DNA of 64,000 nt, taken from positions 2,660 through 66,659 of the forward strand of contig NZ_CAXUEK010000004.1 of assembly GCF_964250165.1 (NCBI RefSeq). Direction: 5' to 3'. Of the stretch, positions 27,410 to 58,194 are shown in pieces. The notes under the pieces are model-generated. The model made no database searches. It saw only the letters and a list, made by a program, of their open reading frames with translations, and had not been told where the DNA came from. The translations under genes and the position numbers were made by a program. Numbering within the stretch: position 1 is the stretch's first letter; each line of letters opens with the position of its first letter. Origin of the DNA: an uncultured Sphingomonas sp. Lineage in GTDB: Bacteria > Pseudomonadota > Alphaproteobacteria > Sphingomonadales > Sphingomonadaceae.

Positions 27410-28819
27410 ATGAGCGCCCCTCTCGCCCTGCTGCTCGCGCAGGCGATGCCGGGCATGGACATGGCGCCAGGCTCCTCCCCGGCACGGGAAGGGGGACCGC
27501 CGGCGAAGCCGGTGGTGGAGGGGGCTCCGTCAGGAACCGTGTCGCGCGCAACCGAGCCCCCTCCACCGTGCGCTGACGCGCATGGTCCCCCTCCCCGTCC
27601 CGGGGCGGACAGTGATTGCGCTGGCCGTCAGATGACGATGCCCGGCATGGCGGGCGATCAGCGCATGGCGATGAGCATCGGCGGGGGAGCATACGAGTCC
27701 GGCTCGGGCACCGCGCGCGTGCCCGCGGCCGAGGGGCCGATGCGGGGGCAGATGATCCATGCCGGCGGCTGGATGCTGATGACGCACGGCTATGCCTGGG
27801 GCGTCGTCACCGATCAGGGCGGCCCGCGCGGACAGGATGAAGCCTTTATCACCTCGATGGCGATGCTGATGGGCGACCGCGACCTGTCGGATCGCGTCCA
27901 CCTCCAGCTGACATCGATGCTCAGCCTCGATCCGCTAATGGGGCCGCGCGGCTACCCCAACCTGTTCGCTACCGGCGAGACGGCGGACGGACGGCCGCTG
28001 GTCGATCGGCAGCATCCGCACGACCTGTTCATGGAGCTGTCCGGCCGCGTCGATTACCGGCTGGGCGGCAAGGACAGCCTGTTCCTCTATGGCGGCCCGG
28101 TCGCGGAGCCGGCGCTCGGCCCCGCCGCCTTCATGCACCGCGGTTCGGCGCGCTATCTGCCGCTCGCACCGATCACCCACCACTGGTTCGATTCGACGCA
28201 CATCACCTATGGTGTCGTCACCGCCGGCTATGCGGGGCCGCAGCTTCAGCTGGAGGGCTCCGCCTTCCGCGGCCGCGAGCCCGACGAGCATCGCTGGGAC
28301 ATCGAGGCGCCGGCGCTCGACAGCTGGAGCGTGCGCGCGACCTGGACGCCCTCGCCGCACTGGGCCGCACAGGTCAGCCACGGCCGGCTCCACAGCCCGG
28401 AAGCGCAGGAGCCCAACGCCGACGAGCGCCGCACCACGGCGACGGTGAGCTACGCGGCCGGCGGGCTGACCGCGATGGTGGGCTATGGGCTGAAGGCGAA
28501 GCTGCCCGGCCGCGCGCTGCCGGCCTGGATCGGCGAGGCCGCATGGGAGATCGGCCGCCACCATACGCTGTTCGGCCGGATCGAGCATGTGAAGAACGAC
28601 GAGCTGTTCCCGGACCCCGCCGATCCGCTGCACGACCGGCCGTTCCGCGTCACCAAGGCCGAGGGCGGCTATGCCTATCGCATCGCGCTGGCCGGGCCGC
28701 TCGGCATCGCGCTGGGCGGCACGCTCGCCGGCTATGCGAAACCCGCCGCGCTCGACGCCGCCTATGGCAACGCGCCGGTGAGTTGGACGTTGTTCGGCAA
28801 GCTGGCGGTCGGACTATAG
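27410..28819 (+). CDS. Conserved exported protein with Met/His-rich N-terminus, probable metal-associated outer-membrane protein; carries an in-frame MITE
   Basis: MPGMDM/MTMPGM repeats, DRQHPHDLFMELS, PITHHWFDSTHIT, FRGREPDE; beta-strand-rich C-terminus. Confidence 0.8.
   Translation: MSAPLALLLAQAMPGMDMAPGSSPAREGGPPAKPVVEGAPSGTVSRATEPPPPCADAHGPPPRPGADSDCAGRQMTMPGMAGDQRMAMSIGGGAYESGSGTARVPAAEGPMRGQMIHAGGWMLMTHGYAWGVVTDQGGPRGQDEAFITSMAMLMGDRDLSDRVHLQLTSMLSLDPLMGPRGYPNLFATGETADGRPLVDRQHPHDLFMELSGRVDYRLGGKDSLFLYGGPVAEPALGPAAFMHRGSARYLPLAPITHHWFDSTHITYGVVTAGYAGPQLQLEGSAFRGREPDEHRWDIEAPALDSWSVRATWTPSPHWAAQVSHGRLHSPEAQEPNADERRTTATVSYAAGGLTAMVGYGLKAKLPGRALPAWIGEAAWEIGRHHTLFGRIEHVKNDELFPDPADPLHDRPFRVTKAEGGYAYRIALAGPLGIALGGTLAGYAKPAALDAAYGNAPVSWTLFGKLAVGL
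27472..27610. repeat. Family A MITE-like element inside a CDS
   Basis: CTCCTCCCCGGCACGGGAAGGGGGACC ... GGTGGAGGGGG / CCCCCTCCACC ... GGTCCCCCTCCCCGTCCCGGGGCGGA nested inverted repeats. Confidence 0.85.
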
Positions 28820-43715: not shown

Positions 43716-43862
43716 TCTCCTCCCCCGCTCCGCGGGGGAGGGGGACCATGCGAAGCATGGTGGTGGGGGGCTGCCGCGCCAGCGTCGGCTTCGCCGCCGC
43801 GCCCCCTCCACCACGCCGCTGACGCGACGCGGTCCTCCTCCCCCGCAGAGCGGGGCAGGAGT
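43716..43862. repeat. Family A MITE-like element between argD and argF
   Basis: CTCCTCCCCCGCTCCGCGGGGGAGGGGGACC ... GGTGGTGGGGGG / CCCCCTCCACC ... GGTCCTCCTCCCCGCAGAGCGGGGCAGGAG. Confidence 0.85.
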
Positions 43863-56179: not shown

Positions 56180-57196
56180 CTATCGGCCGAGCCGACGCAG
56201 CCTCGGCACCCGCCGCTTTGCCCATGCGACCATGGCGTCGAAACCGCGCATAGCGGCGAGCAGCGCGCGGTTCGCCGCCGTCGGCCCGAGCAGCAGCAGA
56301 TCGACACACTCCACGCCGCCCGTCGCCAGCTGCCGCTTGTGCCGCCCGTCGCCCTCGGTGAAGTCGAACCGGTCCCAGCGACCCTCGCCGAACAGGTCCG
56401 CGAGCGCCGTCGCGAGCAGCACCGTTCCGGGGCTCCGGCTAGCCGCAACCGGATCATGCCCGACATGGTCGTAACGCAGCGTCGCGCCGTCCGCGGTGCA
56501 GCAGAGATATGCGATCGGCGCACCGTCGAGGACCAGCAGCCAGGCGCGCACCCGGTCCGCGGCCGCGAGCGCGAGCAGCGGCGCCGGATCGGCGGGCAGG
56601 CCGGCGTCGAGCAGCCGCTCCTGATAGGTCCGCGCCGATACCGCCCGGGCGAGCGGGTGGAAGGCGGCGATCTCCGCGGGCGTGGCATAGCGCCGCACTT
56701 CAGCGCCGGTTGCGCGCAGCCGCTGATCCTTGCGCCGGAGCCGGCGGCGAAGATCGGCCGACAGCGCGGCGCGCCACGCCGCCTCACCCGCCGCGAGGTC
56801 GATCCAGTGACGCGCGTAACGCTGGCGAATGTGGACGAGGCGGCCCGCCGGCGGAAGATCGGCGAGTGCGGCGACCGGCAGCGAGGTGACGAGCAGGCCC
56901 TCCGCCTGTTCCACCGCGCCGAGCGCCGGGACGCGACCGGCAAGCGCGTCGTCGAGCGACAGCGCGACGCGGACCAGCCGGCGGCGGACCGCCAACAGCG
57001 TGCGCGCGCCGATCTGGAAGCGGAGGGCGACCTCTTCGCTCCTCCCCGGGACGGCGAGGGGGAATGCGCGAGCTTGCTCGCGTGGTGGAGGGGGCCCCGA
57101 TCCAGGCTGACCGCTCGCAACGCAGCCCCCTCCACCAGCGGGCTGCGCCCGGTGGTCCCCCTCCCCGTCCCGGGGAGGAACGAGAGGAACAGTCAC
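56180..57196 (-). CDS. GNAT-domain (CelD/BcsL-like) acetyltransferase with an in-frame MITE near the N-terminus
   Basis: GTG start overlaps the upstream TGA; R.YARH.IDL, RAWLL..DG.PIAY, Y..VGHDP....SPGTVL, FDFTEGD..HK. Confidence 0.82.
   Translation of the reverse strand: MTVPLVPPRDGEGDHRAQPAGGGGCVASGQPGSGPPPPREQARAFPLAVPGRSEEVALRFQIGARTLLAVRRRLVRVALSLDDALAGRVPALGAVEQAEGLLVTSLPVAALADLPPAGRLVHIRQRYARHWIDLAAGEAAWRAALSADLRRRLRRKDQRLRATGAEVRRYATPAEIAAFHPLARAVSARTYQERLLDAGLPADPAPLLALAAADRVRAWLLVLDGAPIAYLCCTADGATLRYDHVGHDPVAASRSPGTVLLATALADLFGEGRWDRFDFTEGDGRHKRQLATGGVECVDLLLLGPTAANRALLAAMRGFDAMVAWAKRRVPRLRRLGR
57032..57190. repeat. Family A MITE-like element inside a CDS (159 bp, 53 codons)
   Basis: CTCTTCGCTCCTCCCCGGGACGGCGAGGGGGA ... 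TCCCCCTCCCCGTCCCGGGGAGGAACGAGAG inverted ends with internal GGTGGAGGGGG/CCCCCTCCACC. Confidence 0.88.
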
Positions 57197-58140
57197 GCCG
57201 CTCTCTCCTCCACCCAGTTGGACCAGAGCTGCTCCGCCTGGCGCCAGCGGGTGCGCAGGCGGGCGGGGCCGAGCGGGGCGTCGGCGCGGTCGAGCGGCAG
57301 GTCGGGCCCGTCGCGGAACCACGTCGTCGGCAGCATGTCGCGCCGACGGTCGAGCAGATCGCACAGCGCGTGGAAACGGCGGACATGCACCGCGTTGGCG
57401 CGCGTGCCGGCGCGGTTGGCGAGTTCGAAGCTGTGGCTGACGATCGTCACCGCCGCATGATCGGCGGCGGCGGCGTGGTCCAGCGCATCGGCCGCCTCGC
57501 TCGCCGAAAGCGCGCAGGGCTGGAACGTGCGCAGCCGCCCGGGGCGATCCTCGATCACCGTCACCGGCACCTCGACCACGCCCGCCCGCGCGACCGGCGC
57601 GATCTGGCGCGCGGGCAGCCCGATCCGGCTGGCCCCGGCCTCCGCGCCGTTGTGGCTGCTGTCATAGCGGATGCCGAGCCCCGCCAGCGCCGGCAGCGTC
57701 GCGTCGTCCGCTGCATAGCTGCCGGCGCGGAAGGCGACCGGGGGCGGCGCGCCCGCGGCCGCCAGCAGCTCGGCCGCGCCCGCGATCAGGTCGCGCTGCG
57801 CCGCCTCGTGGAACTCCCACAGCTGGAAGCGGCCCTGCGCCCCAGCCTCACCGGCCCGTGCGCCCGCCCATTGCGGGTGAAGATGCAGCTGCACCTCCTG
57901 CCCCGCCGCCAGCACCTGCTCGACGACGCGGCTGACGGGCGCGAGACCGTAGACCAGCGCCGGCATCGGATCGACGAACACGCACGCCTTGAGCCCGTGC
58001 CGCGCCAGCGTCGCGAGCTGATAGGCGAGGCCGACCGCGGCGCCGTCGAACGACCGCCGCTCGATCTCCGCGAGCGGCAGCCCCGCCCGATGGTGGCGCC
58101 ACGCGATCTCGGCGTCGATCGTCAGGAAGACGCGGGTCAT
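57193..58140 (-). CDS. Polysaccharide deacetylase family protein
   Basis: VFLTID.E, FVDPMPA, EVQLHLHPQW, AFRAG.Y, YDSS.N, HSFE. Confidence 0.85.
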   Translation of the reverse strand: MTRVFLTIDAEIAWRHHRAGLPLAEIERRSFDGAAVGLAYQLATLARHGLKACVFVDPMPALVYGLAPVSRVVEQVLAAGQEVQLHLHPQWAGARAGEAGAQGRFQLWEFHEAAQRDLIAGAAELLAAAGAPPPVAFRAGSYAADDATLPALAGLGIRYDSSHNGAEAGASRIGLPARQIAPVARAGVVEVPVTVIEDRPGRLRTFQPCALSASEAADALDHAAAADHAAVTIVSHSFELANRAGTRANAVHVRRFHALCDLLDRRRDMLPTTWFRDGPDLPLDRADAPLGPARLRTRWRQAEQLWSNWVEERAA

Positions 58141-58194
58141 CGCGCCAGCCATAGCTCGGCGGAGTGAACAATCCTCAAACCCGACGCGGGGTTG

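Follow-up and report, generated by a model that had tools for sequence, protein, structure and literature searches.

A GNAT gene in the window analysed here, a stretch of 64,000 nucleotides from an uncultured Sphingomonas sp., is preceded by a long palindrome that lies in frame between the gene body and its ancestral start codon. Two questions follow from this arrangement: is the palindrome translated as a part of the protein, and what kind of repeat is it? To our knowledge, in-frame palindromic repeats have been a Rickettsia curiosity for 25 years, with no known mobilising enzyme. The GNAT case, from a free-living alphaproteobacterium, is RPE-like; cases of this kind have precedents, and the family to which the palindrome belongs has a candidate nuclease partner.

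Structure of the GNAT junction

The GNAT body occupies positions 56180–57031 of the minus strand (283 codons and a stop) and starts with the conserved VALRFQIGARTL. The protein matches Pfam PF13480 (Acetyltransf_6) over residues 148–288 with E = 3.7e-16 and 60 bits against a gathering cut-off of 22; by some sources it is named CelD/BcsL-like. The inserted block (57032–57190, minus strand) has a length of 159 nt, or 53 codons, and is located between codon 2 (ACT) and GTC GCC CTC (VAL). The ancestral GTG start (57194–57196, minus strand) forms a GTGA overlap with the TGA (57195–57193) of an upstream 319-aa gene (57193–58152, minus strand), whose stop lies 2 nt before the insert. An SD-like motif GGAGGAG (57205–57211, minus strand) lies 8 nt before the GTG, within the conserved W-V-E-E-R C-terminus of the upstream gene and not in the hairpin; the same motif context is seen in the orthologs. 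If positions 57032–57190 are deleted, GTG ACT is joined to GTC GCC CTC CGC TTC CAG, giving MTVALRFQIGARTL. The initial annotation had described a precise in-frame insert of 159 nt (53 codons) after codon 2, as well as the overlap of the GNAT GTG with the upstream stop, and both are confirmed by the sequence. Its further claim, that removal of the element restores a clean N-terminus, agrees with the orthologs, which keep the coupled start and the motif L[RK]FQxGARTL.

The upstream 319-aa protein has no match in Pfam or NCBIfam, and the GNAT gene is followed by recO. The upstream gene and the GNAT gene make up an uncharacterised conserved pair that adjoins a PrsT-like TPR protein and recO. In all 30 of the 30 genus loci examined the two genes lie side by side and are nearly always translationally coupled. 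Of 24 genus genomes sampled, 19 show the pair in synteny; a GNAT ortholog is present in 146 of 200.

The block 57032–57190 is a near-perfect palindrome that forms one long hairpin with 62 paired positions. The minimum free energy of the RNA hairpin is −134.5 kcal/mol with flanks and −125.4 kcal/mol for the block alone; the fold has a z-score of −8.9, and none of 200 shuffles folds equally well. The conserved family core of 140 nt (57040–57179, minus strand), delimited by the nhmmer census, the alignment of 45 copies and the motif-defined ends, consists of a terminal hairpin, GGGGGACC, a variable small hairpin, GGTGGAGGGGG, the centre and the mirror image of these modules. The remaining 11 + 8 nt outside the core form an extension, palindromic but degenerate, which other copies have too and which is pyrimidine-rich at −7 to −4 and has R and then A at −2 and −1. 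As the extension is common to other copies, 159 nt is the right insertion size. No Rfam family matches the region, the lone match being a chance one (mir-133, E = 0.22). Neither an intrinsic terminator nor a promoter signature was found at the element.

The palindrome family in the genome

The whole assembly of this genome (G000; 3.0 Mb, 151 contigs, 92% complete) was searched for family members by BLAST and iterated nhmmer. The census yielded 67 distinct loci, 45 of them full length (128–149 nt); the GNAT-junction copy was recovered with E = 1.9e-32. In the alignment of the 45 copies, 26-nt inverted termini (TCCTCCCCGGGACGGGGAGGGGGACC and its complement) are conserved, as is GGTGGAGGGGG, while the small hairpins and the centre vary. 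The exact 26-mer terminus occurs in at least 120 contigs from Sphingomonas, Allosphingosinicella, Novosphingobium, Croceibacterium, Altererythrobacter, Rhizorhabdus, Sphingopyxis and others, and five close relatives contain 11–70 family matches each. The terminus sequence was found in no paper of the literature collection searched, and the palindrome family appears to be undescribed. Further in this study it is referred to as family A where it has to be told from another palindrome family.

Most copies are located 0–15 nt past a stop codon. A coding-like ORF stop lies 0–31 nt from an end in 30 of 43 full copies, and within 2 nt in 12 of these. At the GNAT junction, the core begins 13 nt past the upstream TGA. 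What looks like an insertion after codon 2 is therefore an ordinary after-stop insertion that fell in an overlapping gene pair. One other copy in the window (43717–43843; model positions 4–131; C4:46376–46502) is intergenic.

The preference for positions just past stop codons, which resembles that of the S. wittichii REPs (PMC3733652), and the lack of an intrinsic-terminator signature would both fit a hairpin kept for the upstream gene or operon at the RNA level, for example as a REP-like stabiliser of the 3' end or as a processing site by which the two genes are uncoupled, with incidental translation. We hold this explanation to be very improbable, given that about one in five full-length copies lies inside a gene, where a 3'-end role would be senseless. 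An RNA-level role of this kind would, moreover, be compatible with translation through the element and does not exclude it.

Copies read in frame in other genes

A genome-wide census of coding insertions had been proposed in the initial annotation. Carried out on G000 with an ORF and GC3 test, it revealed nine more copies through which the reading frame continues from one coding flank to the other. The host genes, confirmed by Pfam/NCBIfam or by orthologs, are those of glyS, RNase R (two copies), E2 acyltransferase, LigD, GluQRS, an MFS transporter and a Met-rich protein. In E2, the copy is in the linker that joins the lipoyl domain to the E3-binding domain, and the LigD copy is also located in a linker. 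All three reading frames are used by the in-frame copies, and PPRDGEGD is among the peptide starts. The copy in the Met-rich protein is the second full copy in the window (27472–27609, plus strand). It is read in the SSPxxxGGP frame and forms a part of the N-terminal Pro-rich linker of an exported protein with orthologs in three relatives. The earlier reading of this copy at 27.5 kb as lying in frame inside a gene was thus correct, and its host is a real, conserved protein. Taken over the full-length copies, with about one fifth of them intragenic and glyS and RNase R among the hosts, this is RPE-like behaviour at scale in a free-living genus.

Insert 1 of RNase R is present in G000 and in the related genome G120 and is missing in G076, G014 and G195; at almost the same position, RNase R of G210 contains a palindrome of another family. 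Insert 2 is common to several species, and its indels are multiples of three. Across species, the reading frame of the RNase R inserts is preserved in spite of indels.

The glyS ortholog of G120 (C7:403278–405962, L211) aligns in three pieces, separated by extra DNA of about 130 and 196 nt. The extra DNA coincides with element matches at C7:404913–405042 and C7:404522–404640, and hence this gene seems to carry several in-frame copies.

Empty and occupied junctions in relatives

An alignment of orthologs at the empty site had also been suggested at the outset, and it gave the expected N-terminus: about 50 orthologous junctions were inspected, and in these the element is absent and the coupled start is kept. 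Among the first 19 genus loci, 18 are empty and one (L047) contains a different palindrome; the further 11 genus loci and 10–11 metagenome loci are all empty. At most of the orthologous junctions the stop overlaps an ATGA or GTGA start (TTGA once), and at a few the gene starts some bases past the stop. The start is followed by L[RK]FQxGARTL within 2–13 residues. The empty junction of L070 reads MTAVALRFQIGARTL, and the junction of G210, the closest relative (70% identity), reads VTAAAVPLRFQ. A strict DNA pattern combining the element end with the 3' end of the upstream gene matched G000 only and none of 400 other genus genomes.

The palindrome in L047 (L047:1376–1494, genome G018) is about 110 nt long, belongs to a different family and lies at the junction of the upstream gene and the GNAT gene. 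It can be read in frame from a TTGA overlap start without a stop, and a new ATG precedes the LNFR motif by 7 codons. A palindrome of this family is also found in the RNase R linker of G210, within about 5 nt of the family-A position in G000.

GNAT homologs of other lineages (55–63% identical) carry an element at the same junction. Recognisable family-A copies are present in L223, L225, L226 and L227 (proteins P0004, P0012, P0041 and P0064), and L224 (P0006) has a more diverged palindromic insert. In L228 (P0008), a 27-nt solo terminal hairpin, a remnant, is found in frame 10 nt past the TGA. Where the core is recognisable, it starts 13–16 nt past the upstream TGA. All these junctions are open from the coupled start and have no new start between the element and LRFQ; as they were found via called proteins, out-of-frame cases would be missed, and the in-frame rate at this site is ascertainment-biased.

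A common origin of the GNAT-junction copies was considered and rejected. The similarity of the G000 copy to the copies of other lineages is 0.71–0.85, compared with up to 0.84 to copies within its own genome, and the variable hairpins differ between the GNAT-junction copies of different lineages. Since the similarity is no higher and the variable hairpins differ, a site-specific lineage is not supported.

Start codon of the GNAT gene and translation of the insert

In-frame ATG, GTG or TTG codons are limited to the coupled GTG and a TTG (56993–56995, minus strand), the sole in-frame start 3' of the element, located 12 codons past the insert. No Shine-Dalgarno sequence precedes this TTG. The initial annotation had stated that no start lies at SD distance after the element, and this holds. 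The gene call of the record itself (P0003, 100% identity) is 271 aa long, which fits a start at the internal TTG (283 minus 12 codons); the call appears to use this codon.

The protein was modelled with AlphaFold2 using an alignment of 56 sequences (mean pLDDT 85, pTM 0.82). In the model, SEEVALRFQI (residues 53–62) forms beta-strand 1 with pLDDT of about 90 and is paired with a strand at 65–78, and residues 1–38 are disordered (pLDDT below 50). The TTG (L68) is inside predicted strand 2 and is preceded by the nearly invariant L58, F60, G63, A64, R65, T66 and L67. According to the model, a protein begun at the TTG would be without strand 1 and these seven residues. Because the conserved N-terminal beta-strand would be dropped, the record call is likely an annotation error caused by the repeat. 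The case also has a practical side for annotation: gene callers truncate genes that contain such repeats, the GNAT call of 271 aa being an example.

Were the TTG the true start, the element would be an untranslated intercistronic spacer in front of a protein of 271 aa, and its hairpin would act at the RNA level only. The call in the record fits such a spacer, as do the strong hairpin beginning about 7 nt past the GTG and the often extragenic position of N-terminal REPs (PMC3733652). We nevertheless regard it as unlikely: in addition to the missing SD and to the loss of predicted strand 1 and of seven invariant or nearly invariant residues, the TTG is used by no inspected ortholog, and in other lineages with an element at this junction the upstream frame is open as well.

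The element is probably translated from the coupled GTG, which would add a 53-residue extension to the N-terminus. The length of the insert is a multiple of three, it is stop-free, and the SD and GTG(A) are outside the hairpin, which makes re-initiation followed by read-through the most likely course. Neither the frame nor the lack of stops counts for much by itself. Chance would preserve the frame with a probability of 1/3, and the lack of a stop codon is weak evidence because, whichever frame is taken, 29–34 of the 45 full copies (64–76%) contain none. Translation through the element is the best reading given the nine other copies in frame in real genes. Several points stand against read-through. 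A stem of about 62 bp some 7 nt past the GTG should hinder initiation and could attract RNase III, and the record's own gene call appears to use the TTG. In addition, Di Nocera et al. (PMC3733652) warn that many N-terminal "intragenic" REPs may in fact lie outside genes.

The insertion may instead have crippled expression, so that the GNAT gene would be silent or nearly so, a young pseudogene that has not decayed and whose frame match is a 1-in-3 chance. The hairpin of about −125 kcal/mol adjoins the start, the search of 400 genomes with the DNA pattern matched only G000, and stops are rare in 70% GC DNA, hence an open frame says little. All of this would suit a silenced gene. The gene body, in contrast, contains no frameshifts across its 283 codons, and its terminal branch is of ordinary length (0.27 in G000 vs 0.35 and 0.43 in the sisters G210 and G120). 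As the branch is not longer than those of the sisters, the gene does not look released from selection. Furthermore, no other copy is more than 85% identical to this one, which is hence probably not recent, and genes such as glyS evidently tolerate in-frame copies. With these observations, silencing seems quite unlikely.

Under translation from the coupled GTG, the following order of events can be proposed. An ORF-less 159-nt copy of a nested-palindrome selfish element would have landed a few bases past a stop codon, at a site that coincides with codon 3 of the following PF13480 GNAT gene, which is taken to be translationally coupled. Ribosomes finishing the upstream gene would most likely re-initiate at the ancestral GTG by virtue of the presumed coupling, melt the hairpin and read through it. 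The enzyme made in this way would be of full length, with a Pro/Gly-rich, disordered extension of 53 residues at its N-terminus.

DUF559 cassettes and a proposed mode of movement

DUF559 (PF04480), a Vsr-like nuclease domain, has seven matches in G000, and two of them are bracketed by family arms. The match at C3:20316–20792 (L235:1407–1883) is flanked by both termini, each with a single mismatch, over a span of 471 nt; this cassette starts 17 nt past the stop of a gene. At C6:45246–45716 (L234), both arms were detected by nhmmer. At loci of other genomes, collected via the 26-mer, five of six DUF559 matches have a family-A terminus within 200 nt, and three of the six have both termini, spanning 444–471 nt. 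Altogether, the arms bracket DUF559 genes in G000 and in five other genomes. Since their ends are common to the DUF559 cassettes, the short elements look like ORF-less derivatives of such a cassette.

The DUF559 ORF and the PPRxGEG frame of the arm form one continuous reading frame. Two more matches in G000 (C129:2224–2541 and C27:26508–26771) are inside open frames of 704 and 1876 aa, respectively. The former may be an in-frame cassette, as it continues from a MurB-like C-terminus without a stop, and the latter is probably the known helicase-associated DUF559 domain.

No match to RAYT (PF01797, Y1 transposase) was found in G000, which is 92% complete; six of 14 control genomes have one. A search for the mobilising transposase had been proposed earlier; the longer relatives with the same ends encode DUF559 and no known transposase. 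In the flanks of 43 copies there was no excess of direct repeats over shuffled pairs for k = 2–10, and no target-site duplication was seen in the RNase R empty-site comparison. At the GNAT-junction copy, a 2-nt GT ambiguity is possible. A tentative 9-bp duplication (GTTCCTCTC / GTCGCCCTC, 6 of 9 positions matching) was rejected, its left flank being better explained as the degenerate palindromic extension. The initial designation of the element as a MITE is imprecise: the inverted 26-nt termini and the lack of an ORF agree with it, whereas no target-site duplication was detected and the partner appears to be a DUF559 cassette rather than an IS.

We infer from the common ends that the DUF559 nuclease mobilises the family. 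A wider reading can be offered tentatively: the 140–160 nt palindromes and the 444–471 nt DUF559 cassettes might be the non-autonomous and autonomous forms of one undescribed Sphingomonadales selfish-element family, moved by a Vsr-like nuclease and not by a transposase, making no target duplication and persisting after stops or in frame in permissive linkers. As a part of this tentative reading, the GNAT start and the RNase R linker might have been hit repeatedly in different lineages, also by the second palindrome family. If the DUF559 reading is true, the nuclease would be the first candidate enzyme partner for RPE-like "protein-decorating" repeats. The ends of the family are conserved across at least seven genera, and the DUF559 long form is recurrent; with both, the movement of the repeats and their tolerance by proteins and ribosomes become testable in culturable bacteria.

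Comparison with known repeats

RPEs are the classical in-frame palindromic repeats (Ogata et al. 2000, summarised in PMC10969869 and PMC3733652). As far as these summaries describe them, they resemble the present family in being palindromes of about 100–150 bp with tens of copies, many in frame in unrelated housekeeping genes. The summaries likewise give an encoded peptide that is tolerated, the occurrence of N-terminal decorations and no known transposase. The corresponding features here are a hairpin of 140–159 nt, 67 loci and ten in-frame copies including the one at the GNAT gene. The differences are the free-living Sphingomonadales host with 70% GC, the location of most copies just past stops and the arms common to DUF559 cassettes. 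Homology to RPE-1 to RPE-10, judged from host GC and termini, is unlikely. By analogy, the family may be said to work like an RPE and is not filed as an RPE member. The initial annotation had called the insert RPE-like in a free-living alphaproteobacterium, a description strengthened by the nine other in-frame copies; it is, however, not the first such case, being preceded by short REPs (PMC3733652).

Those REPs were described by Di Nocera et al. 2013 (PMC3733652), who found intragenic copies in Sphingopyxis alaskensis and Erythrobacter litoralis, among others in E2 and tRNA synthetases, and in S. wittichii GC-rich hairpin REPs less than 20 bp from ORF 3' ends. Like the CGTC/GTAG REPs (PMC3733652), the present family consists of GC-rich hairpins near ORF 3' ends, occurs in frame in genes and has an inverted-dimer architecture; the CGTC REPs also lack a dedicated transposase (PMC3733652). 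Unlike the family, CGTC/GTAG REPs encode 8–30 residues of different sequence, e.g. VAPAQAGA (PMC3733652). The family, for its part, is a nested palindrome of 140–160 nt with CGTC in the loop and not as a terminal tag, and has a protein-coding long form.

With MITEs that have IS partners (Correia, Nezha and QMITE; PMC10969869, PMC5896051) the family shares small size, the lack of an ORF, terminal inverted repeats and many copies; in this family the 26-nt inverted termini are conserved across copies and genera. Occasional in-frame fusions and a longer coding relative with the same ends are further likenesses (PMC10969869, PMC5896051), and Coxiella QMITEs also fuse to ORFs (PMC5896051). The family differs in that no target-site duplication was detected and in that the longer relative encodes a Vsr-like DUF559 protein instead of a known transposase, be it of the DDE or of another type.

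REPIN-RAYT systems (Bertels and Rainey 2011, PMC3116915) are similar in having two inverted hairpin units within a larger hairpin, in their extragenic location near gene ends and, probably, in vertical inheritance (PMC3116915). The family shows an inverted pair of 20–23 nt terminal hairpins, with GACG/CGTC in the loop and not at the terminus. Neither a GTAG tag nor, in G000 (92% complete), a Y1/RAYT gene was found, and the family differs further in the frequency of its in-frame copies within genes.

The other end of the GNAT protein is extended in one homolog. P0108 from Sphingomonas azotifigens has a C-terminal extension of about 45 residues, which is G/S/P-rich and ends with ...SPPPGGGGRPKA; it looks like a repeat-derived tail at the opposite end of the same gene.
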